Assembly (NCBI GenBank): GCA_900544115.1
Contig: UQTW01000004.1
Coordinates: 18,302-82,301, forward strand
From: an uncultured Collinsella sp.
Lineage (GTDB): Bacteria > Actinomycetota > Coriobacteriia > Coriobacteriales > Coriobacteriaceae
Reading direction: 5' to 3'
Length of the DNA stretch: 64,000 bases
Shown here: in pieces, positions 2,433 through 57,116 of the stretch
How positions within the stretch are numbered: the stretch's first letter is position 1
Layout of the letters: every line of letters begins with the position of its first letter
Position numbers and translations under genes: made by a program
Notes under the pieces: model-generated
Seen by the model: only the letters and a program-made list of their open reading frames with translations
Told to the model about the DNA's origin: nothing
Database searches by the model: none

Positions 2433-2461
2433 TGTGACAAAGGGACAGTCCCTTTGTCACA
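2433..2461. repeat. 29-bp perfect palindrome TGTGACAAAGGGACAGTCCCTTTGTCACA, copy 1 of 8
   Basis: Exact inverted repeat read directly from the sequence. It lies 36 bp after the guaA-subunit stop. Confidence 0.9.
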
Positions 2462-2478
2462 TCCTCGATATTATGTGA

Positions 2479-2520
2479 GGGATGGTACGCCACGCGGCGT
2501 GCCATCCCGTTCGTTATTTT
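2479..2520. terminator. Bidirectional intrinsic terminator: a GC hairpin plus T-run that forms the second half of an ~85-bp composite element
   Basis: Stem gggatggtacgcc/ggcgtgccatccc followed by gttcgttatttt. The stop of the convergent histidine-kinase gene (2514-2516) lies inside the T-run. Confidence 0.6.
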
Positions 2521-3662
2521 AATGAGCCGAGTGCGCGAGTGGGAAGGGTCACGAGCATGGTCGTTCCGCGCTCCGAGCTCTCTTCGACCTCGATGGAGCC
2601 GCCGTGGAGTGCGGCAATCTCCCAGACCAGTGCAAGCCCCAGCCCCACGCCGCCATATGCCCTGCTGCGCGATTTGTCGACGCGAAAGAAGGGCTGGAAG
2701 ATGCTCGTCTGGTATTGCTCGGGAATGCCCGGCCCCTGGTCGCGCACGCGTAGCAGCACGCGGTCGCCTTCGGCGCAGGCGTTGATTTGCACGGTCGAGT
2801 TGGGCGCGCTGTAACGTATGGCGTTTTCGGCCAAGTTGAACAGCAGCCGATAGATTAGCGTATCGCTGCCGATCGTTTGCGCGTCGCCCTCACTTGTAAG
2901 CGTGATGTCTTTTTGCTCGGCAAGGGGCGCCAGGTCCGTGAGTACTTCTTCGATCATCGGCGCCAGGTCAATCGCATCGTTGCAAGGGACACTGCGCAGC
3001 TCGCTCATCTCGAGCAGGGTCTTTGTCATGTGCGTCATCCGCTCGGTCTGCTCCTGCAGCAGCCCGAGCAGGCTCGCTGTATCGGCGTCGACGTCGGGGT
3101 GCTCGGCGCAAAACAGCTCAACCTGGGCCTGCATGAGCGCAAGTGGCGTGCGCAGCTCGTGCGCCGCATTGCCCGTAAACTGTCTTTGTGCGGAAAATCC
3201 CTCGTCAAGGCGGGCAATCATGTCGTTAAACGACGCGCTGCAGCGCCTGAGTTCAGAGGGCACGTCCTCGCTGATTTTTGTGTCGGCGAGGTTGTCGGGC
3301 CGCACGCTCTCGACTTGCGTCGCAAAGGAGCGCAACGGCTGCAACGCATGCCCGCTCACAAAGTAGGCCAGGACGCCTCCGAGCAGCGTCACCGCCGCAG
3401 TTATATACCAGCTCGTCGCGCCAAACGATTCTTGGGCGTCGTTCACGACGATGGTCAGCGCGTCGTCGAGCTCTTTGTTTGTCGGGTCAAATGAGCTGGG
3501 CGAGGCCGCCTCCACCTTGCTGTGCGCCGACGCTTCTGCACCAATCGAGTCCATGTAGCGCATGCCGGAGTAGCCAACCAGGCAATTCATAAGTACGCAG
3601 GTTGAACATATCAGCAGTGCCGTCATCAACGTGATGCGCCACTGCAGCGACAGCCGCTTCAT
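2514..3662 (-). CDS. Two-component sensor histidine kinase
   Basis: N-terminal transmembrane segments, H-box ...AHELRTPL..., HATPase motifs (DQGPGIP, GGVGLGLA). Confidence 0.85.
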   Translation of the reverse strand: MKRLSLQWRITLMTALLICSTCVLMNCLVGYSGMRYMDSIGAEASAHSKVEAASPSSFDPTNKELDDALTIVVNDAQESFGATSWYITAAVTLLGGVLAYFVSGHALQPLRSFATQVESVRPDNLADTKISEDVPSELRRCSASFNDMIARLDEGFSAQRQFTGNAAHELRTPLALMQAQVELFCAEHPDVDADTASLLGLLQEQTERMTHMTKTLLEMSELRSVPCNDAIDLAPMIEEVLTDLAPLAEQKDITLTSEGDAQTIGSDTLIYRLLFNLAENAIRYSAPNSTVQINACAEGDRVLLRVRDQGPGIPEQYQTSIFQPFFRVDKSRSRAYGGVGLGLALVWEIAALHGGSIEVEESSERGTTMLVTLPTRALGSLK

Positions 3663-4333
3663 TTGCCGTCCTCCATAACGTAGCCTTCGCCGATTCGGTT
3701 GCGGATGGGGTCGTGCCCCAACGCACCGCGCAGCTTTTTGCGCAGCGACGAGATATGCACGCGGGTCGCGTTGCTAAAGCTGTTGACGCTGCTGTCCCAT
3801 ACATGCTCGATAAGCTCTTCCTGGCTCACCGGCCGCCCCTGGTTAAGCATCAGGTATTCCAAGATGCCGGTCTCCTTGCGCGTGAGGGATAGGGTCTCGC
3901 CGCCCACGGAGGCGAGGCGCGCCTTGGTGTCAAAGCTCAACAATCCACAGACTAGAACAACGTCGTTTTGCGTAAAGCGCCTGAGCGTGAGACTGCGTAT
4001 ACGTGCCGCCAGCTCGTCAAGATGGAACGGCTTGGTGAGGTAGTCGTTGGCGCCCGCATCGAGCCCCGCTACCTTGTCGGAGACCTCGCCACGTGCCGAG
4101 AGCACAAGCACCTTGGTCTCACAATCAGTTGTCCTGAGTTGCCTGAGCACGGTCATGCCGTCGACATGGGGGAGATTGAGGTCGAGCACGACAAGATCAA
4201 AGGTCTCGACATCGAGCAGATCGAGGGCCTGCTGCCCGTCGTAGCAGCAGTCGACGCTATAGGCCAAGTTGCGCAGGCTGCGTGCGATCGCATCGCACAG
4301 CGCCCGCTCGTCCTCGATGACCAAGATGCGCAT
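3659..4333 (-). CDS. OmpR-family response regulator
   Basis: MRILVIEDERALCDAI... receiver domain with the phospho-acceptor D, and a C-terminal winged-helix. It overlaps the kinase gene by 4 bp, indicating an operon. Confidence 0.85.
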   Translation of the reverse strand: MRILVIEDERALCDAIARSLRNLAYSVDCCYDGQQALDLLDVETFDLVVLDLNLPHVDGMTVLRQLRTTDCETKVLVLSARGEVSDKVAGLDAGANDYLTKPFHLDELAARIRSLTLRRFTQNDVVLVCGLLSFDTKARLASVGGETLSLTRKETGILEYLMLNQGRPVSQEELIEHVWDSSVNSFSNATRVHISSLRKKLRGALGHDPIRNRIGEGYVMEDGK

Positions 4334-4483: not shown

Positions 4484-5473
4484 TTGGCTTTGGAATTATG
4501 CGCGGCGAGGCAGATGCCGTGCTGGCCAAGGCAATCAGGCTGTGCTTGGAGTGTATCGGAATTGGATAAAAGAAAAAACACTGCATCGCATCTTTTAGCG
4601 CGATTTCGTGGATTGATTCAGGCGGCGGCGACGCTTGCGACCAATATTCACCTGCCTAACTTTGCCAAGGGCGGCATCTACCAGGGAGCGGGCAAAGCCG
4701 TCTGCGTGCCGGGCCTCAACTGCTACTCGTGTCCAGCGGCCTCGGGTGCGTGCCCCATCGGGTCGTTTCAGTCGGTGGTGGGCTCGTCTAAGTTTAGCTT
4801 CTCGTATTACGTCACCGGAACGCTCATTCTGATCGGCGTGCTGCTGGGACGTTTTGTATGCGGCTTTTTGTGCCCGTTTGGATGGCTACAAGAGCTTTTG
4901 CATAAGATTCCCAGCAAAAAGCTCTCCACGAAAAAGCTCAAGCCGCTCACGTACATCAAGTATGCCGTGCTGCTGTTTGCCGTGGTGCTGCTGCCCGTCT
5001 TGGTGGTTAACGATGTGGGTATGGGCGACCCGTTCTTTTGCAAGTACATCTGCCCGCAAGGTGTGCTCGAGGGCGCGATTCCGCTGTCCATCATGAACGT
5101 GGGAATCCGCTCCGCGCTGGGAAAGCTCTTTTCCTGGAAGCTCGCGATCCTCATTGTGGTTGCGGTGCTGAGCGTGCTGTTCTATCGCCCCTTCTGCAAA
5201 TGGATTTGCCCCCTCGGCGCATTTTATGCGCTCATGAACAAGGTGTCTTTGCTGGGGATCCAGGTTGACCAGTGCAAATGCGTCTCGTGCGGCAAGTGCG
5301 CCAAGGTGTGTCAAATGGACGTGGACGTTACGCGTACGCCCGACCATGCCGAGTGCATTCGTTGCGGCAAATGCGTGGGCGCGTGCCCCGTCGATGCTAT
5401 TAGCTTTCGCTATGGGCTGGGTGTGACGGGCGACAAACCCGCGCAGTCCACGCAAGCCTGCGAAAACAAATAG
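4484..5473 (+). CDS. NapH/MauN-like polyferredoxin membrane protein with 4Fe-4S clusters
   Basis: Repeated CxxCxxCxxxCP motifs (CKYICPQG, CKWICPLG, CVSCGKCAKVC, CIRCGKCVGACP) plus transmembrane segments. The track start is a TTG, so the true start is probably further downstream. Confidence 0.6.
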   Translation: MALELCAARQMPCWPRQSGCAWSVSELDKRKNTASHLLARFRGLIQAAATLATNIHLPNFAKGGIYQGAGKAVCVPGLNCYSCPAASGACPIGSFQSVVGSSKFSFSYYVTGTLILIGVLLGRFVCGFLCPFGWLQELLHKIPSKKLSTKKLKPLTYIKYAVLLFAVVLLPVLVVNDVGMGDPFFCKYICPQGVLEGAIPLSIMNVGIRSALGKLFSWKLAILIVVAVLSVLFYRPFCKWICPLGAFYALMNKVSLLGIQVDQCKCVSCGKCAKVCQMDVDVTRTPDHAECIRCGKCVGACPVDAISFRYGLGVTGDKPAQSTQACENK

Positions 5474-5508: not shown

Positions 5509-6471
5509 ATGAAACTGTCAAAAATTGCAGCTCTGTTGATGCTGCCCGTGCTGGCGCTGACTCTCGCGGCGTGCTCTGCCCCCAAGGGCGACGCGAAGGG
5601 TGCTACGAGCGGCGATGCGCAGATTGCCGAGCTCATAGCGCAAAAGCCGTCGAGTGCCGAGGAGGCGGCCGAGCTGTACCAGCAGCTGCTGCAAAAGGAA
5701 AACGAGATCTTTGCGAGCGATAACGCCCTATGGGAAAAGGTGTTCCTTGCGGCCAACAAAGACACTCCCATGATTGAGGACGGCAAGAACTACGGTGACT
5801 TCTTGCTCGATACCATCGAGGGCGCCAAGGATCAGTTTGCGGCTGACGAGCTTAAGACGCTTAAGGCCGGCGCGCAGCAGGTCAAGGAGATCGAGGACAA
5901 GCTCATGGCGCTGGAGAAGGAGTTCCCCGGATGCGGCAGCACGCCCGGCGAGGGGGAGAGCGTCGATGCCTCGACCGCAGGCATGACTAACGGCGAGAGC
6001 GGGGAGACGAAGTTCCCCAGCTTTAAGGGCAAGGACTTGGACGGCAACGATGTAAACAGCGACGAGCTGTTCTCCAAGAACAAGGTCACCGTCATGAACT
6101 TCTGGTTTACCACCTGCAAGCCGTGCGTGGGAGAGCTGGGCGATCTGGAGAAGCTCAACAAGGAGCTTGCCGAGAAGGGCGGCCAGGTCGTGGGCGTTAA
6201 TTCCTTTACGCTCGATGGCAACAAAGACGAGGTGGCCGATGCCAAGGACGTGCTTTCCAAGAAGGGCGTGACGTATAAGAACATCTGGTTTAAGTCGGAC
6301 AGCGAGGCCGGAAAGTTCACCTCCAACCTGTACTCGTTCCCGACCACCTACGTGATCGACCAGAACGGTAACATTGTGGGAGAGCCGATCATGGGCGGCA
6401 TCAACTCCGCTGAGCAGCGCGAGGCGCTCAACAAACTGATCGATCAGGCACTCGCGAAGAGCGAACAGTAA
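5509..6471 (+). CDS. TlpA/ResA-like thioredoxin-fold lipoprotein (thiol:disulfide oxidoreductase)
   Basis: Lipoprotein signal MKLSKIAALLMLPVLALTLAAC, and a C-terminal redoxin fold with the active site WFTTCKPCVGE. Confidence 0.7.
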   Translation: MKLSKIAALLMLPVLALTLAACSAPKGDAKGATSGDAQIAELIAQKPSSAEEAAELYQQLLQKENEIFASDNALWEKVFLAANKDTPMIEDGKNYGDFLLDTIEGAKDQFAADELKTLKAGAQQVKEIEDKLMALEKEFPGCGSTPGEGESVDASTAGMTNGESGETKFPSFKGKDLDGNDVNSDELFSKNKVTVMNFWFTTCKPCVGELGDLEKLNKELAEKGGQVVGVNSFTLDGNKDEVADAKDVLSKKGVTYKNIWFKSDSEAGKFTSNLYSFPTTYVIDQNGNIVGEPIMGGINSAEQREALNKLIDQALAKSEQ

Positions 6472-6496
6472 GTCCGTGGGACAGACAACTGAAGGG

Positions 6497-6528
6497 GAGT
6501 CGCTGGAAACAGCGACTCTTTTTTCTGC
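6497..6528 (+). terminator. Intrinsic terminator after the TlpA-like gene
   Basis: Hairpin gagtcgctg-gaaa-cagcgactc followed by ttttttct. Confidence 0.6.
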
Positions 6529-6542
6529 TTCGGGGTAGCATC

Positions 6543-6695
6543 ATGGGTATACGTCGAAAGGGCACGCAGCTTTTCGTGCATTGCCCGAGCGGTGCGCGAA
6601 GCAACCAAGCTGTGAGTTTTCTTAAGCGTTCTGGGTATGGCAGTGTCAAGAATATCGGCGGCATAAGCGGCTACACGGGAAAGGTGGTGCGTTAG
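6543..6695 (+). pseudogene. Truncated single-domain rhodanese, 50 aa. It is absent from the ORF track because it is below the 60-aa cutoff.
   Basis: MGIRRKGTQLFVHCPSGARSNQAVSFLKRSGYGSVKNIGGISGYTGKVVR carries the rhodanese active-site loop CxxGxR, but the N-terminal half of the fold is missing. The stop is 3 nt before the CoADR start. Confidence 0.4.
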
Positions 6696-6697
6696 CT

Positions 6698-8389
6698 ATG
6701 AAGGTGGTTATCGTTGGAGGCGTCGCGGGCGGCGCATCGGCGGCGGCACGTTTGCGCAGACTCGACGAGCAGGCCCAAATTGTCATCTTTGAGCGCACGG
6801 GTTTTGTATCGTATGCCAATTGTGGGCTTCCGTACTACATTGGCGGCGTGATAGAAGAAGAGAGCGCATTGACGCTGCAGTCTCCCAAGGGCTTTTGGGA
6901 TCGCTTTCGCATTGCGGTCAAGACGAGTCACGAGGTGTTTGCCATCCATCCCGATTCGCATACGGTCGAGGTTCGCAATATGCTGACGGGCGAGGAATTT
7001 GTCGAGACGTATGACAAGCTCATCCTGTCGCCGGGTGCAAAGCCGATCCGCCCTGCGTTGCCGGGCATCGACTCGGATAAAATCTTTAGCCTACGCACCG
7101 TTGAGGACACGCTGCGTATTCACAGCTATGTTCGAGAGCGGCGACCGAGCAGTGCCGTCGTGATCGGCGGCGGCTTCATTGGCGTCGAGACGGCGGAGAA
7201 TCTGTGCGAGCTGGGGCTCCAGGTGACCCTTCTGCAGCGTCCCGTCCAGCTTATGAACAACCTGGATTACGACATGGCGACCCTTTTGCATACCGAGGTG
7301 CGTGAGCACGGTATCGATCTGCGCCTCAAGGCCGATGTGACAGGTTTTGAGGAAGTTGATGGCCGCGTTGTCACCCATGTTGCGGGCGATGACCCTATCG
7401 GAGCCGATATGGTGCTGCTTGCCATTGGCGTGGCACCTGAGAGCCATCTGGCGCAAGAGGCGGGGCTCGAACTGGGCGTCAAGGGGGCTATTGTGGTCAA
7501 CGACCGCATGGAGACCTCTGCTGCCGACGTGTATGCCGTGGGCGATGCCGTGCAGGTCACGCATCAGGTGACCGGCGAGGACGCGGTCATTTCGCTCGCC
7601 GGCCCCGCCAACAAGCAGGGGCGTGTCGTCGCCGATGTCATAGCCGGCATGGACAGCTGCTACCTCGGATCGTTGGGCTCATCGGTTATCAAGGTATTCG
7701 ACTTGACGGCGGCAAGCACGGGACTATCCGAAAAGGCGACACACGCGGCGGGAATTGACTGCGACAGCGTGGTCCTGTCGCCCGGTTCGCATGCGGGTTA
7801 TTATCCGGGTGCAACGCCCATGACCATGAAGGTTGTCTTCGAGAAGCAGGGATTGCGCCTGCTGGGTGCGCAAATCGTGGGCATCGATGGTGTGGACAAG
7901 CGTATCGACGTTCTGGCGACTGCCATCCAGGCAGGCATGCGCGGCGATAGGCTTAAGGATTTGGACCTAGCATACGCGCCGCCGTATTCATCGGCGAAGG
8001 ATCCCGTCAATATGGCGGGCTTTATGATCGAGAACCTCAATCGCGGCATACTGGCGCAGTGGCATTGGGAGGATGAGCCCAACTTGCCACGCGATGGCAG
8101 CGTGCAGCTGCTCGATGTTCGTACGGAAGGGGAGTATGAGCGCGGGCATATCGATGGTTTCGTAAACATTCCCGTCGATGATCTGCGCAATCGCCTGAGC
8201 GAGCTCGACCGGGCCAAGCCGGTCTACGTGATTTGCCAGAGCGGCATTCGCAGCTACATTGCTTGCCGCATTTTGGCGCAGCATGGCTTTGAGTGCTTTA
8301 ACTTCTCGGGCGGCTATCGCTTCTTTGCAGCCGTGACTGAGGCTCGCCGCGGCAGCGCTAACGTTATGCCGTGCGGGCTCGAAAAGTAG
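6698..8389 (+). CDS. cdr: CoA-disulfide reductase fused to a C-terminal rhodanese domain (CoADR-RHD)
   Basis: MKVVIVGGVAGGASAAARL Rossmann fold, redox-active Cys in SYANCGLPY, and a C-terminal rhodanese loop VYVICQSGIRS. Confidence 0.8.
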   Translation: MKVVIVGGVAGGASAAARLRRLDEQAQIVIFERTGFVSYANCGLPYYIGGVIEEESALTLQSPKGFWDRFRIAVKTSHEVFAIHPDSHTVEVRNMLTGEEFVETYDKLILSPGAKPIRPALPGIDSDKIFSLRTVEDTLRIHSYVRERRPSSAVVIGGGFIGVETAENLCELGLQVTLLQRPVQLMNNLDYDMATLLHTEVREHGIDLRLKADVTGFEEVDGRVVTHVAGDDPIGADMVLLAIGVAPESHLAQEAGLELGVKGAIVVNDRMETSAADVYAVGDAVQVTHQVTGEDAVISLAGPANKQGRVVADVIAGMDSCYLGSLGSSVIKVFDLTAASTGLSEKATHAAGIDCDSVVLSPGSHAGYYPGATPMTMKVVFEKQGLRLLGAQIVGIDGVDKRIDVLATAIQAGMRGDRLKDLDLAYAPPYSSAKDPVNMAGFMIENLNRGILAQWHWEDEPNLPRDGSVQLLDVRTEGEYERGHIDGFVNIPVDDLRNRLSELDRAKPVYVICQSGIRSYIACRILAQHGFECFNFSGGYRFFAAVTEARRGSANVMPCGLEK

Positions 8390-8402
8390 CGCGCATTGGA
8401 AT

Positions 8403-8431
8403 GTGACAAAGTGACAGCCTCTTTGTCGCAT
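8403..8431. repeat. Degenerate copy of the 29-bp palindrome (tgtgacaaagtgacagcctctttgtcgca), copy 2
   Basis: Read directly from the sequence. It lies 14 bp after the cdr stop and carries the same downstream extension as copy 1. Confidence 0.8.
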
Positions 8432-8447
8432 CGGGGATGTTATATGC

Positions 8448-8488
8448 GGGATGGTGCGCCATGCGGCGTGCTGTCCCGTTCGTTTTTT
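8448..8488 (+). terminator. Intrinsic terminator, second half of the composite element
   Basis: gggatggtgcgcc/ggcgtgctgtccc pairs as plus-strand RNA once G:U wobbles are allowed, which amounts to compensatory change relative to copy 1. It is followed by ttttttgg. Confidence 0.6.
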
Positions 8489-8601
8489 GGCGCGGTTCGT
8501 TACATTCCTCACTGGTATCGGCCAAAAATGAGGATAGAGTAGGACAAACGCGCCGAACGTGAACGGCGGGGGAGCGGGCGAGCGCGCCCGCGCGAGAGAG
8601 G

Positions 8602-11600
8602 TTGCCGTCCATGCTGGATCTCAGAGTTATTTGCAAAAGGTACGTTACGCAGTCGTTTACGCAGGTAGCGCTCGACAGCGTAAGCCTGTCTTTTCGCGAT
8701 AACGAGTTCGTAGCCATTCTGGGTCCCTCGGGTTCGGGTAAAACTACGATGCTCAACGTCATCGGTGGACTCGATCATTTCGATTCGGGCGATCTGCTGA
8801 TCGACGGCATCTCGACCAAGGACTTCAACGACCGCGATTGGGATGCCTATCGCAATAATCGCATCGGCTTTGTGTTCCAGAGCTATAACCTCATTCCGCA
8901 TCAGAGCATTTTGGAAAACGTGGAGTTGGCGCTTACGCTCACGGGCGTGGGGCATGCCGAGCGCCGCCAACGTGCGCGCAAGGCGCTCGAGGCAGTCGGT
9001 CTGGGCGAGCACGTTGACAAGCGCCCGAGCCAGCTTTCGGGCGGGCAGATGCAGCGCGTGGCCATTGCCCGCGCCCTGATCAATGACCCCGAGATTGTGC
9101 TGGCTGACGAGCCGACCGGCGCCTTGGATTCAACGACGTCCGTCCAGGTCATGGATTTGCTCAAGGACGTTGCGCGCGACCGTCTGGTCATTATGGTCAC
9201 GCACAATCCCGAGCTGGCGTACAAGTACGCCACGCGCATTGTCAACCTGGCGGACGGCAAGGTCACCGACGATTCAGATCCCTTTGATGCTGCCGAGGCC
9301 GCGCGTCGCGAGGCCAAGCCCACGCGCAAAACCTCGATGAGCTTTGTGACGGCGCTTGGGCTTTCTGCCCGAAATCTCATGACCAAGAAGGGCCGCACGG
9401 CCATGACGGCCTTTGCAGGTTCGATTGGCATTATCGGCATTGCGGCGATCCTGGCGCTCTCCAACGGCGTAAACGACTACATCAAAAAGGTCGAGGAGGA
9501 CACGCTCTCGAGCTACCCGCTGACGATTTCCAAACAAGATTATGACCTGTCGTCCATGATGGGCGGGCATGGGGCTACGGATGATGAGGTGTCCGAGGGC
9601 GAGGACTCGTCCGATGGCGCTACCGGCGGCAAGGCTCAGGGGACCGATAAGATCCCTGTGGTCACGGCCGTAAAGGACATGTTCGCAAGTGTTAAATCTA
9701 ACGATATGACGAGCTTTAAGGCATGGCTTGACGACGGCGGCAACGGTATCGACAAAGAGGTCAACGCTATTCAGTATGGTTACGGCGTGACGCCGGTTGT
9801 CTATCGTTCGAGTAAGGGCGACGAGAAGCCCGTTCGCCTTGTTCCCAACGCTATGACCGAGGCCATGAGCGGAGGCGCGAGCTCGGCGGCAACGGTGAGC
9901 ATGGAATCCATGGGAACGTCGGTCTTTAACGAGATGATTGACGACCAGAGCCTGCTCGACAGCCAGTACGATGTCGTTGCCGGCCATTGGCCTACGTCCG
10001 CCAACGAGGCCGTGATGGTGCTTTCGAGCCGCGGAACGGTGGGCGACTACACGCTCTACAGTATCGGCGCGCTGGATATCGATGAGCTCAACGACCTGGT
10101 TAACAGTGCCATGACGGCCGACGGCAAGGTCAAGACGCCCAAGACCGGCAGCGACTTTACCTACGACGATGCACTGTCCACGACGTTTAAGGTGTTGTCG
10201 CCGGCCGATGCCTATCGCAAAAACGAAGAGACCGGCATGTGGACTGACATGTCTGGCGACGCCGACTTTATGAAAGCCAAGGTTGCCGACGGTATTGACG
10301 TGCGCATTGTGGGCGTGGTGCGACCCAACGAGACGGCAAACGCGAGCGCATTGTCCCCGGGCATTGTCTATACGCATGCGCTGACTCGCCAGCTTATGGA
10401 GCGTGCTGCCGATTCGCAGATTGTGCAGGAGCAGCTTGCCCACCCCGAGACGGATGTCTTTACGGGCAAAACCTTCGACGAGCTGCAGGGCGAAGCCAAG
10501 CAGGGCGTGGATTTGGGCAGTATGTTCAGCGTAGACGAGGCGGCACTGAAGAGCGCGTTCTCGTTCGATGCATCTGCGCTCTCGGGTGTTGCCGGCGGTA
10601 TGGACCTTTCTGGTCTCGATTTGTCCGGGTTGGACATTGACCTTTCGGGTGTTGGGCGAGACATCGATTTCAGCGACATCATGGCCAAGGCGCCGGTCCC
10701 GGATTTCTCGGGCATCTTTGACGGTCTGGAACTCACACCCGAGCAAATGCAGCAGGTGGGAGCGCTAGCCAACCAGCTGTTTGAGGGCTTTATGCGCTCT
10801 GATCAGTTTAAGGCGCTGTCGCCCGAAGATCTTAAGGACGCGTCAAAGCTCGCTGCCGCATTCTCAGCGTACCTTGAGAATGATGTCGCAGCCCAGCAAT
10901 ACCTGGCTCAGCTCAGGGCGCTCGGCGGCGATGCCCTGGCCGAGCGTCTGCAGCAGGTGATGGGCGACTATGTGCAAAAGCAGCTGGCTCCGTATTTGCA
11001 GCAGTCTATGGATCAGGTGATGAAGGCGGTCAGCGAGCAGATTGCGACGACGGTATCAACCCAGCTCAAGGCGGGTGCGGCAGGGCTCATGGACCAAATG
11101 GCGACGCAGATGTCTTCGAGTTTTGCCAACTTGGCGAGCACCATGCGCGTGGATGCGAACGCCTTTGCTCGCGCTATCCACTTTAACATGGACGCTGAGG
11201 ACCTGAGTTCGCTCATGATGAGCTATGCCAAGGCGTCGAAGCTCACCTACGACAACAACCTGACCACACTGGGCTATGCGGACGAGGCCGACCCCATCTC
11301 GGTCAAGATTTTCCCGCGCGACTTTGAGGCCAAGGAGCGCGTGCTTGAACACATCGATGCGTACAACAAGCAGGTCAAAGCCGCCGGCCACGACGAACAG
11401 GCCATCTCGTACACCGACTACATGGGCATCATCATGGGCTCGGTGACCGACATCGTGAACACCATCAGCTTGGTGCTCATCGCATTCGTGAGCATCAGTC
11501 TGGTGGTGAGCTCCATCATGATCGGCATCATCACCTACATCAGCGTGCTGGAGCGCAAAAAGGAGATCGGTATCCTGCGCGCGATCGGCGCGTCGAAGCG

Positions 11601-11865
11601 CAACGTGGCCAACGTGTTCAATGCCGAAACCTTTATCGAGGGTCTCATTGCCGGCGTCTTTGCCGTTACCGTCGTGGTGCTCGTAAGCTTTCCTGTTAAT
11701 GCTTGGGCGCTTGCTGCCAAGCAGGTCCCCAACCTGATGAGCCTGCCCGTGCAGGATGCGTTGATACTCATTGCGATATCGGTGCTGCTGACGGTCGTCG
11801 CCGGCCTACTGCCGGCCCGCAGCGCATCTAAGAAAGACCCCGTAGAAGCCCTACGCTCCGAATAA
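8602..11865 (+). CDS. Fused ABC transporter ATPase and FtsX-type permease with MacB-like architecture
   Basis: N-terminal Walker [10 protein letters not shown], signature LSGGQMQRV, and Walker B. There is one transmembrane segment, a large extracytoplasmic domain, and a C-terminal FtsX-like 3-TM bundle. Confidence 0.8.
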
Positions 11866-11894
11866 TGTGACAAAGGGACAGCCCCTTTGTCACA
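11866..11894. repeat. 29-bp palindrome copy 3 (tgtgacaaagggacagcccctttgtcaca)
   Basis: It directly abuts the TAA stop of the ABC gene (11863-11865). Confidence 0.9.
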
Positions 11895-13250: not shown

Positions 13251-13279
13251 TGTGACAAAGGGACAGTCCCTTTGTCACA
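13251..13279. repeat. 29-bp palindrome copy 4 (exact)
   Basis: It sits in the 5' region 16 bp upstream of dus and is followed by the conserved gatgtgag motif. Confidence 0.9.
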
Positions 13280-28160: not shown

Positions 28161-28200
28161 TGCGCAAGAGGGAAATATGGGCTCGTCTGTCCCTCCGTTC

Positions 28201-28513
28201 GTTTATCTCGATCCGTAACATCTGAAGTCAATTTTGGCGGCTAGATGTTACAGATCGAGACAGCCTCGATCTTCCTGCTGGTTTATCTCAATCTGTAACA
28301 CTTAGGCCTGATTTTGATGGCTAGATGTTACAGATTGAGACATTGGCTGCCCGCCTGCCAGTTTGTCTCGATCTGTAACAGGTAGAGGCTCAAAACCCGT
28401 CTTTCTGTTACAGATTGAGACGGAGATTGAGACGGTGTTGGTCTTCCCAACCGTTTATCTCGATCTGTAACATCTGGAGCCGATTTTGGCGGCTAGATGT
28501 TACAGATTGAGAC
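28201..28513. repeat. Tandem array of four 61-bp hairpin units at 80-bp period. CRISPR-like layout but not a CRISPR.
   Basis: Units at 28201-28261, 28281-28341, 28361-28421 and 28453-28513. Each is GTTTATCTCGATCTGTAACA-(25 nt)-TGTTACAGATTGAGAC with 16-bp inverted arms. Spacers are 19, 19 and 31 bp. Confidence 0.85.
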
Positions 28514-39673: not shown

Positions 39674-39917
39674 GGTAAAACGCGTCGTTGTGGGACTCGC
39701 ATTGTTACCGCCCCAGATGAACCCGGGCAGACAAAAAGGGGAGGTGCCGGCTTTCGCAAGGCGCGAACCTACGAAAATCGCCGCGCGGCAACGCGGGGCG
39801 ATGAGCTCGGTCGGGGGATAGGGCCCGCTTCGCCCGCCGGCCCGTAAATTGTATCATCCAGTGTGGAACGAGAGCGCCCGTTGCCGCGTGCGATGGGCTT
39901 GCAATAAGAGGAGAGCC

Positions 39918-41921
39918 ATGTCGAAGCAAGCGGTCGTTGGAATCTTGGCGCATGTCGATGCCGGCAAGACCACGCTGGCCGAGGCCATGTTGTTCAACGC
40001 GGGTCGCATTCGCAAGCGCGGCCGCGTGGACGATGGCGATTCGCATCTGGACACTAACACGATCGAGCGCGAGCGCGGCATTACGATCTTCTCGTCGCAG
40101 GCCGTGCTCGACCATGGCGATACCCACGTCATGCTCGTTGATGCGCCGGGGCATGTCGATTTTTCTGCCGAGGCGGAGCGCACATTGCGCGCACTCGACT
40201 ACGCGATTTTGGTTGTGGGCGCCAACGACGGCGTACAAGGGCACACCGAAACCCTGTGGCGCCTGCTTGCGCGCTATGACATTCCGACGTTCATCTATAT
40301 CAACAAAATCGATTTGGAGAATCCCGGCCGCGATGTTTTGCTGGCACAACTTGGGCAACGTCTTTCCGAAGGTTGCCTGGATGCCAACGAACTGTTGGCG
40401 GGCGGCGCCGTTCAGGAGGACGCTGCTGCGTTGGACGAGGCGGCGCTCGAGGAGTTTCTTGAGGCGGGCGAACTTTCTGTTGCAACGCTGTCACGCATGG
40501 TTGCCGAGCGCAAGCTCTTTCCCTGCTTTGCCGGCTCGGCGCTCAAGGACCAAGGCGTGGACGAGCTGCTGGACGGCATATGCGCGCTGATGCGTGAACG
40601 GGCATGGCTTCCGGAGTTTGCCGCGCGCGTCTATCGTGTCAGCCGCGGGGATCGTGGCGAGCGCTTGGCTTGGGTTAAAGTGACCGGCGGCACGCTGCGT
40701 GCCAAGCAGATGATTAACGGACGTTCCGGCGCCGAGGCATGGGAGCAAAAGATCGACCAGGTGCGCATCTATAACGGCGAGAAATACGAGCTTGCCCAGG
40801 AAGTTGCCGCTGGCGGCATCTGCACCGTGACGGGTCTTGCGCACGTTCGCCCGGGTGATGCCCTGGGCGCGGAGCCCGCGGGCGATACGCCCGTCATTGC
40901 GCCGGTCCTCACCTATACGGTGCTTCCGGGCGAACACGATGTCCACGCGGTGTTCAAAGCGCTGACTGAGTTGGCGGACGAAGATCCCATGCTCGGCGTA
41001 AGCTGGAATACGCATCTTGAACAAATACATCTGCAGCTCATGGGAGCGGTGCAACTCGAGGTCGTGCAGCGGGTGTTGGCCGATCGTTTTGGCCTTGCGG
41101 TCGAGTTTGAGCCCGGCGGCATCCTCTATAAGGAGACCATTTCGCAGCCGGTCGAGGGCGTGGGTCACTTTGAGCCACTGCGCCACTATGCCGAGGTGCA
41201 TCTGCGCCTGGAGCCGTTGCCGGCGGGCTCGGGCGTACAGTTTGGCACCGTGACCTCGACCGACGAGCTCGATCTTAACTGGCAGCGTCTGGCGCTCACC
41301 AACGCCATGGAGCGCGATCATCTGGGCGTGCTGACCGGCTCGCCCATCACCGATGTGTGCATTACGCTCACAGGTGGCCGCGCGCATGCCAAACACACCG
41401 AGGGCGGCGATTTTCGCCAGGCCACGTATCGCGCGATTCGCCAGGGGCTCATGCGGGCACGTGAGGCCGGCGCGGCGGTGCTGTTGGAGCCGTGGTACCA
41501 CTTTGAGCTCGAGGTGCCGGGGGAGTGCGTGGGCCGGGCGCTCTCGGATGCCACGCGCATGGGTGCCGAGTACGAGCCGCCGACGATGGCGGGCGACCGA
41601 GCGAAGCTTGTGGGTCGCGTGCCGGCATCCGAGGTGCAGGATTACGCGCTGGAGGTGGCTGCCTACACGAGTGGTCGCGGGCATCTGTACCTGGAGTTTG
41701 CCGGCTATGCGCCTTGTCATGATGCCGAGCGCGTCATCGAGGCGGTGGCCTATGAGCCCGAGGCCGATCTGCCCAACACGCCCGACTCGGTCTTTTGCTC
41801 TCACGGCGCCGGTTACACGGTCAAATGGTACGACGTACCCGCCGCGGCACACGTAAAGATCGATCCCGCCGCCTTCCGTCCCTGGCGAGCAGCAGACGCT
41901 GAGTTTTTCGGCCACATGTGA
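39918..41921 (+). CDS. Ribosomal-protection-type translational GTPase (TetM/TetO/TetW/OtrA family)
   Basis: AVVGILAHVDAGKTTLAEAML, DAPGHVDF, NKIDL. The domain IV/V region ...LPAGSGVQFGTVTS... aligns with Tet(W)/Tet(M) and is divergent from canonical EF-G. RBS aagaggagag precedes the ATG at 39918. Confidence 0.65.
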   Translation: MSKQAVVGILAHVDAGKTTLAEAMLFNAGRIRKRGRVDDGDSHLDTNTIERERGITIFSSQAVLDHGDTHVMLVDAPGHVDFSAEAERTLRALDYAILVVGANDGVQGHTETLWRLLARYDIPTFIYINKIDLENPGRDVLLAQLGQRLSEGCLDANELLAGGAVQEDAAALDEAALEEFLEAGELSVATLSRMVAERKLFPCFAGSALKDQGVDELLDGICALMRERAWLPEFAARVYRVSRGDRGERLAWVKVTGGTLRAKQMINGRSGAEAWEQKIDQVRIYNGEKYELAQEVAAGGICTVTGLAHVRPGDALGAEPAGDTPVIAPVLTYTVLPGEHDVHAVFKALTELADEDPMLGVSWNTHLEQIHLQLMGAVQLEVVQRVLADRFGLAVEFEPGGILYKETISQPVEGVGHFEPLRHYAEVHLRLEPLPAGSGVQFGTVTSTDELDLNWQRLALTNAMERDHLGVLTGSPITDVCITLTGGRAHAKHTEGGDFRQATYRAIRQGLMRAREAGAAVLLEPWYHFELEVPGECVGRALSDATRMGAEYEPPTMAGDRAKLVGRVPASEVQDYALEVAAYTSGRGHLYLEFAGYAPCHDAERVIEAVAYEPEADLPNTPDSVFCSHGAGYTVKWYDVPAAAHVKIDPAAFRPWRAADAEFFGHM

Positions 41922-47491: not shown

Positions 47492-47520
47492 TGTGACAAA
47501 GGGACAGTTCCTTTGTCACA
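47492..47520. repeat. 29-bp palindrome copy 8 (tgtgacaaagggacagttcctttgtcaca)
   Basis: The trmL stop codon (reverse complement of 47516-47518) is the TGA inside the palindrome's right arm. Confidence 0.9.
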
Positions 47521-57008: not shown

Positions 57009-57116
57009 GGAAAGCGCGTCCCAGAATGAGCGTTCAGACTGGGATGCGGTTTCCCGTTAAGCCTCTATATGGAAAGCGCATCCCAGAATGGACGTCCAAA
57101 CTGGGATGCGCTTTCC
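57009..57116. repeat. Two tandem homologous 46-nt hairpins between convergent genes
   Basis: ggaaagcgcgtcccag-(14)-ctgggatgcggtttcc at 57009-57054 and ggaaagcgcatcccag-(14)-ctgggatgcgctttcc at 57071-57116. There is no T-run, so they are REP-like rather than a classic terminator. Confidence 0.7.

Follow-up and report, generated by a model that had tools for sequence, protein, structure and literature searches.

The question raised by this locus is why one 88-nt unit should stand at two gene ends, 6 kb apart, in a Collinsella gut bacterium, and whether it acts there as RNA or as DNA. The two copies were analysed within a 64-kb stretch of an uncultured Collinsella sp. (GenBank assembly GCA_900544115.1, contig UQTW01000004.1), referred to as the window. 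In a repeat search of the window, positions 2432-2519 (copy A) and 8401-8488 (copy B), both read on the plus strand, aligned without gaps over 88 nt at 83% identity. The duplicated element of about 85 bp that an earlier reading, made from the sequence only, had proposed is thereby borne out, whereas the 20-bp linker of that reading proved to be 17 nt in each copy. The shared sequence begins at the first palindrome base (plus the preceding A) and runs through GTTCGTTATTT, between unrelated flanks; hairpin 1 opens it and the U-tract closes it.

Each unit is composed, in order, of a 29-bp palindrome (hairpin 1), a 17-nt linker, a GC hairpin of 13-15 bp (hairpin 2) and a GTTCGTT(A/T)TTT tail. In copy A, the strand-neutral, REP-like palindrome TGTGACAAAGGGACAGTCCCTTTGTCACA (2433-2461) is followed on the plus strand by the linker TCCTCGATATTATGTGA (2462-2478), by hairpin 2, GGGATGGTACGCC ACGC GGCGTGCCATCCC (2479-2508), with a 13-bp stem and an ACGC loop, and by the U-rich tail GTTCGTTATTTT (2509-2520). 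The palindrome of copy B, TGTGACAAAGTGACAGCCTCTTTGTCGCA (8402-8430, likewise strand-neutral), is degenerate, with four substitutions relative to the consensus, a U:G at pair 3 and two loop-proximal mismatches. It is followed, again on the plus strand, by the linker TCGGGGATGTTATATGC (8431-8447), by a hairpin 2 with four G:U pairs (8448-8477, the stem extending to 8446-8479) and by the tail GTTCGTTTTTT (8478-8488). The linkers of the two paralogues are partially conserved, sharing GAT.TTAT.TG; a promoter within the linker was considered on account of a -10-like TATTAT and rejected, as no -35 box lies at a workable spacing on either strand. The hairpin-2 pattern is matched twice in the window, against 0.00 matches expected from shuffles. 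A covariance model of the composite (R1), run over the window with filters off, scores 107 bits at A and 103 bits at B, and the remaining matches, none above 40 bits, consist of the palindrome alone. The copies are paralogous, with identities of 83-93%, the B copy of some lineages being 93% identical to the A copy of the window.

Both copies lie 3′ of plus-strand genes. Copy A begins 36 nt past the stop (2397) of the gene for the C-terminal, ATP-pyrophosphatase subunit of GMP synthase (1417-2397; GMP_synt_C, 2.6e-32) and separates it from a convergent, minus-strand histidine kinase gene (2514-3662), which is followed by an OmpR-type response regulator gene on the same strand (3659-4333). The kinase stop codon that the earlier reading had placed in the T-run is indeed there (TTA, 2514-2516, within the tail), and the last Lys codon of the kinase is drawn from the T-run as well. 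The plus-strand genes that come next encode a Fer4_5 membrane protein (the FeS protein; 4484-5473), an AhpC/TSA-type redoxin (5509-6471) and a CoA-disulfide reductase with a rhodanese domain (6698-8389), which in this genome is the last gene 5′ of copy B. Copy B begins 13 nt past the reductase stop (8389) and about 120 nt 5′ of a gene for a fused ABC ATPase/FtsX permease (8602-11865, plus strand).

A placement just past stop codons is that of an intrinsic terminator, and hairpin 2 has the corresponding structure. Among 18 sites found in a terminator consensus scan of positions 1-14 kb, A and B rank first and second, both on the plus strand. The stems contain 13-15 pairs, nine of them G-C, and fold on the plus strand with energies of -27.6 kcal/mol (A) and -26.8 kcal/mol (B), with z-scores of -5.4 and -4.5, compared with -22.9 and -14.8 kcal/mol on the minus strand. 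The U-tract was defined in the scan as five or more T within 8 nt, beginning 0-2 nt past the stem, and such a tract is present at A and B on the plus strand only. It is broken by a C and a G, since GUUCGUU precedes the run of U4-6, and some relatives have GTTTTTT directly 3′ of the stem at site B.

The interrupted tail, together with downstream GTTCGTT(ACA) repeats, could alternatively be read as a set of operators for an OmpR-type regulator, with copy B acting as a regulated attenuator or promoter for the ABC/FtsX gene. GTTCGTT does occur 3′ of hairpin 2 in both copies, at B a GTTCGTTACA is found again a further 17 nt downstream, and the genes neighbouring the copies include a two-component system and an ABC/FtsX transporter. 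Copy A, however, is located between convergent gene ends, where there is nothing to regulate, and GTTCGTTACA, with 3 matches in the window against 2.0 expected, shows no enrichment; nor does it occur in the promoter region of the two-component system. Binding sites of the OmpR family typically have a repeat spacing of 10-11 or 21-22 nt, unlike the 15-17 nt found here, and the operator reading is regarded as very improbable. In some relatives, the site-B loci (8478-8504 in the window) carry a 15-nt tandem duplication in which GTTCGTTACATTTTT occurs twice, and there is a loose resemblance between the GTTCGTT motif and the palindrome's right arm, CTTTGTCACA.

The distinction between an RNA structure and a DNA-level site depends largely on how the stem varies. 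Between copies A and B, the stem of hairpin 2 differs at pair 9 (A-U/G-U), pair 6 (G-C/G-U) and pair 5 (U-A/U-G), and a U-G at pair 8 is common to both. Every difference was said in the sequence-only reading to preserve plus-strand pairing, and all three do; the pattern was further called compensatory, which does not hold between the window copies, where the three changes are one-sided wobbles and none is double. True double changes are found among orthologues, at pair 5 (U-A/U-G/C-G) and pair 9 (A-U/G-U/G-C), and these series, together with G-C/G-U at pair 6, make up the common substitutions, all of them plus-strand wobble steps. Across 21 orthologous and paralogous hairpin variants from about 190 loci, the plus-strand RNA is the more stable in 21 of 21, with mean energies of -23.8 against -16.4 kcal/mol, and the variants contain 51 G:U cells compared with 2 A:C cells and 3 cells with other mismatches. 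Mutations that break pairing on both strands, which the same reading had named as evidence against an RNA structure, were in fact seen (G:A, G:G and A:G), though as singletons near the loop; the rare variants as a whole have A:C, G:A, G:G or A:G mismatches in the upper stem.

Formal covariation did not reach significance. Helix 2 is 99.5% paired over 29 distinct sequences, with three pair types at two of its pairs, yet as much pairing is attained by 86 of 500 column shuffles, and the covariation score is indistinguishable from that of the shuffles, likely because most changes are transitions and the 29 sequences are close relatives. The pattern used in the first genome scan, described below, restricted stem changes to transitions, and apparent pairing is therefore inflated in that sample. 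Independent events are few: about 4-6 stem transitions are plus-compatible and one (G to A, pair 11) is minus-compatible, an excess that is suggestive, albeit not decisive. In a metagenome sample collected without constraint on the stem, diversity per site at B rose from 0.029 for the hairpin-2 stem to 0.104 for the stem of the palindrome, 0.109 for the loop, 0.157 for the linker and 0.195 for the tail, so that the hairpin-2 stem is the lowest-diversity part of the element.

The distribution of the composite was followed in two scans. The first covered one genome per species, used the hairpin-2 pattern with transitions allowed, and returned 116 stretches; all matches with an upstream palindrome come from Collinsella or Coriobacteriaceae records, and the others are unrelated GC hairpins in Streptomyces and other high-GC genomes. 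All 102 of the 102 elements that could be oriented lie at two orthologous sites, either 3′ of the GMP-synthase subunit gene (site A) or 5′ of the ABC/FtsX gene (site B). The second scan, directed at metagenomes and anchored on palindrome arm, linker and tail with the stem unconstrained, gave 78 human-gut stretches, from sites A and B only. A 900-kb C. aerofaciens replicon contains no full copy but does contain palindrome-only matches, the one inspected lacking hairpin 2. Since the scans return only sites A and B and this replicon has no full copy, the composite is a two-locus paralogous unit and not a multi-copy family, and on the sequences scanned it is confined to the C. aerofaciens group. 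A phage collection gave no match, and a plasmid collection yielded only the palindrome matches of the 900-kb replicon. Ongoing gene conversion between A and B was also considered and rejected, the within-genome distance (14.6) being no smaller than the between-genome distance (14.0).

When loci at site A were extracted by their flanking genes, four architectures were found. The composite is present at most loci. Seven loci have the composite minus 62 nt, with hairpin 2 lost, and in these an extra canonical terminator, GCCCCCGTTTCC..GGAAGCGGGGGC TTTTT, lies directly 3′ of the GMP-synthase gene. A further seven (e.g., L022) have no palindrome and carry an unrelated hairpin, GGGGCCCCGCGC..GCGGGACCCC TTTCGTTTT, while in L170 the composite is preceded by an additional upstream hairpin. 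At site B, the palindrome, linker and left arm of hairpin 2 have been swapped in L060 for AGAGGCCCC..GGGGCCTC TTTTTT, a replacement also given as AGAGGCCCC..GGGGCCTCTTTTTT, and the right arm alone remains. All three substitute hairpins fold strongly. Unrelated terminators thus take the place of hairpin 2, and a plus-strand terminator is the constant feature at A and B.

Two of these site-A architectures have further peculiarities. The 62-nt deletion (L092, L123, L145, L177, L059, L102 and L065) lies between short GCG(N)GGGA repeats, and in the loci that bear it the kinase ORF runs through the linker and the entire palindrome to a C-terminus of ...HNIEDVTKELPLCHIC*. The terminator of L022 (2636-2680) is, like that at 2479-2520 of the window, a 30-nt hairpin with a 4-nt loop, and its tail, CCCCTTTCGTTTTAC, is similar to the composite tail, CCCGTTCGTTATTT.

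The same loci bear on whether the copies might be attL/attR-like repeats left by integration of the intervening 6-kb block (kinase, regulator, FeS protein, redoxin and reductase). The copies are direct repeats, oriented alike, that bracket a block of 5,969 bp, and the right-hand end of this block is polymorphic in gene content. That polymorphism, however, is limited to the reductase cassette, which lies 5′ of copy B in some lineages and 3′ of it in L124, and the block contains no integrase. Seven loci have this block with its order unchanged, copy B only and an unrelated terminator at A, and no genome was seen in which the GMP-synthase gene, a single composite and the ABC gene adjoin with the block precisely missing. 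The island reading was rejected, since there are genomes that retain all of the block with a single copy, and is considered extremely improbable.

The cassette itself (6477-8396), which has its own upstream terminator (6496-6527), varies in presence among Collinsella genomes and is missing from many (L011, L013, L022, L030, L032, L101 and L124 are the loci concerned). Its right junction is the exact 5′ edge of the 29-bp palindrome, and cassette-less loci often have a half palindrome, TGCGACAAAGG, immediately 5′ of the full one. The L124 cassette, 3′ of the composite instead of 5′, is 79% identical.

On the evidence of structure, strand preference and replacement, hairpin 2 and its T-run likely constitute a plus-strand intrinsic (Rho-independent) terminator that follows a REP-like palindrome and is duplicated at two gene ends. 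The proposal of an RNA terminator module in place of a DNA-level site is accordingly supported for hairpin 2, given its scan rank, the co-oriented ORFs, its plus-strand stability, the double changes among orthologues and the replacement by other terminators; it does not extend in the same way to the palindrome half, where strand bias is much weaker. Like known intrinsic terminators, the element has a GC-rich stem-loop of about -27 kcal/mol and a U-rich tract on the transcribed strand just past a stop codon, its structure is kept while its loop varies, and it is swapped for unrelated terminators in relatives. Unlike them, the Collinsella element has an interrupted U-tract, and one terminator sequence occurs at two loci within a larger duplicated unit. 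A polymerase leaving the GMP-synthase subunit gene (A) or the FeS-protein/redoxin/CoA-disulfide-reductase operon (B) would transcribe the palindrome, whose RNA would form a stable hairpin in the 3′-UTR; hairpin 2 would be transcribed next, and the transcript would be released in the U-rich tail, GUUCGUU(A/U)UUU. We infer from these features that termination takes place at both sites. The palindrome hairpin may, in addition, protect the transcript against 3′ exonucleases.

Two stable hairpins and a terminator within 88 conserved nucleotides could also be expected of a gene for a small RNA of about 90 nt that is transcribed from a promoter of its own and ends at the hairpin-2 terminator. No conserved promoter-like sequence is found upstream, though, and the sequences 5′ of A and of B are unrelated; hairpin 1, moreover, is a generic dispersed palindrome. 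Rfam gave 0 matches to the whole window at gathering score, and the two regions, searched at E values up to 1, matched only generic hairpins at 15-18 bits, far under the cut-offs, so that there is no match at gathering score or with a meaningful E-value. A small-RNA gene is consequently judged a most improbable identity for the unit.

The palindrome half of the unit belongs to a different class of sequence. TGTGACAAAGGGACAGTCCCTTTGTCACA is dispersed over about eight loci in the 64-kb window, where one would be expected by chance (17 matches to the pattern with both strands counted, against 1.0 expected), at 2433, 8402, 11866, 13251, 41917, 43128, 46235 and 47492, with weaker relics elsewhere. 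All copies in the window lie at, over or adjoining ORF 3′ ends. Those at 11866, 41917, 43128 and 47492 adjoin or overlap stop codons: the first base of the 11866 palindrome directly follows the TAA of the ABC gene, the TGA stop of the ORF at 39849-41921 lies inside the TGTGAC of the 41917 palindrome, and the palindrome at 47492 runs over the stop of an ORF on the minus strand. A relic of linker and hairpin 2 that seemed to lie 3′ of the palindrome at 13251 (ATGTGAG..GGATG) was dismissed as a chance resemblance, the matching A, at 2478, being found in this strain's copy A only. The strand bias of the palindrome is much weaker than that of hairpin 2 (15 G:U against 7 A:C cells), and two of its changes are fully compensated (TGCGAC..GTCGCA and TGTGGC..GCCACA). 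This pattern fits a symmetric element used either way round or action at the DNA level, and given the weaker bias a DNA-level component is therefore possible for this half of the unit.

In its form, the family is reminiscent of the repetitive extragenic palindromes (REPs) and BIMEs of enterobacteria and pseudomonads, with which it shares a 29-bp imperfect palindrome, many extragenic copies at gene 3′ ends and a mosaic arrangement with other motifs; as an imperfect palindrome of 20-40 bp that is extragenic and present in many copies, it can be described as a REP. It differs in its host, an actinobacterium (Coriobacteriia), and in its termini, the palindrome ending in (A)TGTGAC...GTCACA(T) with no GTAG or CGTC tag, unlike the REP superfamilies that bear one (PMC3733652). 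REPs have been proposed to influence termination and mRNA stability (PMC3733652). Hairpin 2, being present at two loci only, is not a REP, and the unit is neither a BIME nor a REPIN, because it does not consist of two inverted REPs and hairpin 2 is unrelated to the palindrome. A REPIN is formed of two inverted copies of one REP. The Collinsella unit resembles the REPIN/RAYT system (PMC3116915, PMC3337134) in being a short, hairpin-forming, non-coding element with more than one copy, seemingly copied as a defined unit, and differs from REPINs in that its hairpins are mutually unrelated in sequence and that each genome has two unit copies. A search of the literature found no description of a Collinsella REP or of the 88-nt unit.

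How the unit came to occupy two sites is a separate matter, and the terminator reading leaves a twofold, sharp-edged 88-nt unit without a mechanistic account. Site B is the more widespread, so copy A was probably copied as a whole unit, a direction and mechanism that we infer. One account of the duplication would treat the 88 nt as selfish or mobile DNA, similar to a MITE or REPIN and transposed whole, in which the hairpins serve mobilisation and not RNA. The sharp edges at the first palindrome base and at the end of the T-run, the unrelated flanks, the origin of the palindrome half in a dispersed repeat family, the absence of the unit from site A in some lineages and the compensated palindrome changes that keep DNA symmetry would all suit such an element. 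It is, however, restricted to just two sites in every genome sampled. The unit ends, ATGTGACAAAGGG and CCCGTTCGTTATTT, are not mutual inverted repeats, and no target duplication is seen at the flanks (AGCAG/TAATG at A; TCCGA/GGGGC at B), so neither terminal inverted repeats nor target-site duplications are read at the unit ends, and the definition of a MITE does not fit the unit. Hairpin 2, with its strand-asymmetric G:U pattern and most conserved stem, also argues against this reading, as do the phage and plasmid collections, which lack copies beyond palindrome-only matches, and the lack of any indication of ongoing A-B gene conversion. A mobile unit of this kind appears decidedly improbable.

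A further proposal combines the two halves into a portable terminator cassette, in which copying depends on the palindrome, by way of an enzyme that recognises it or of recombination seeded by it, and the intrinsic terminator is carried along. This is considered unlikely; if it were true, Collinsella would install ready-made gene ends at new intergenic sites, and the palindromes would mark the entry and exit junctions of gene cassettes, such as that of the CoA-disulfide reductase. The Correia elements of Neisseria are small, non-autonomous intergenic repeats that carry terminators. The Collinsella unit is comparable to them as a small intergenic repeat that brings a functional gene-end signal, here a predicted one, where it lands, and differs in having no terminal inverted repeats or target duplications and a copy number of two.

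With hairpin 2 read as a terminator, the locus provides a documented candidate intrinsic terminator for the C. aerofaciens group, a gut actinobacterium with scarce transcript-end data, and an example of terminator turnover at one intergenic site, with four architectures and a plus-strand terminator in each. It also offers a lead to a hitherto undescribed family of REP-like palindromes in Coriobacteriia, whose members adjoin stops and mark the insertion/deletion junctions of gene cassettes. The understanding of termination or of REP elements is unchanged by these results, and their use lies in annotation and in the lead on the palindrome family.

Two other groups of repeats were observed in the window. 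At 28200-28513, four long-hairpin units are arranged in tandem, each consisting of GTTTATCTCGATCTGTAACA, a spacer of about 25 nt and TGTTACAGATYGAGAC; the arm pattern has 8 matches against 0.01 expected, and the arm motif also adjoins a GC hairpin in another genome (L110). At 57009-57116, two palindromic copies of 46 nt with 87% identity, GGAAAGCGCGTCCCAGAATG..CTGGGATGCGGTTTCC, stand 62 nt apart.
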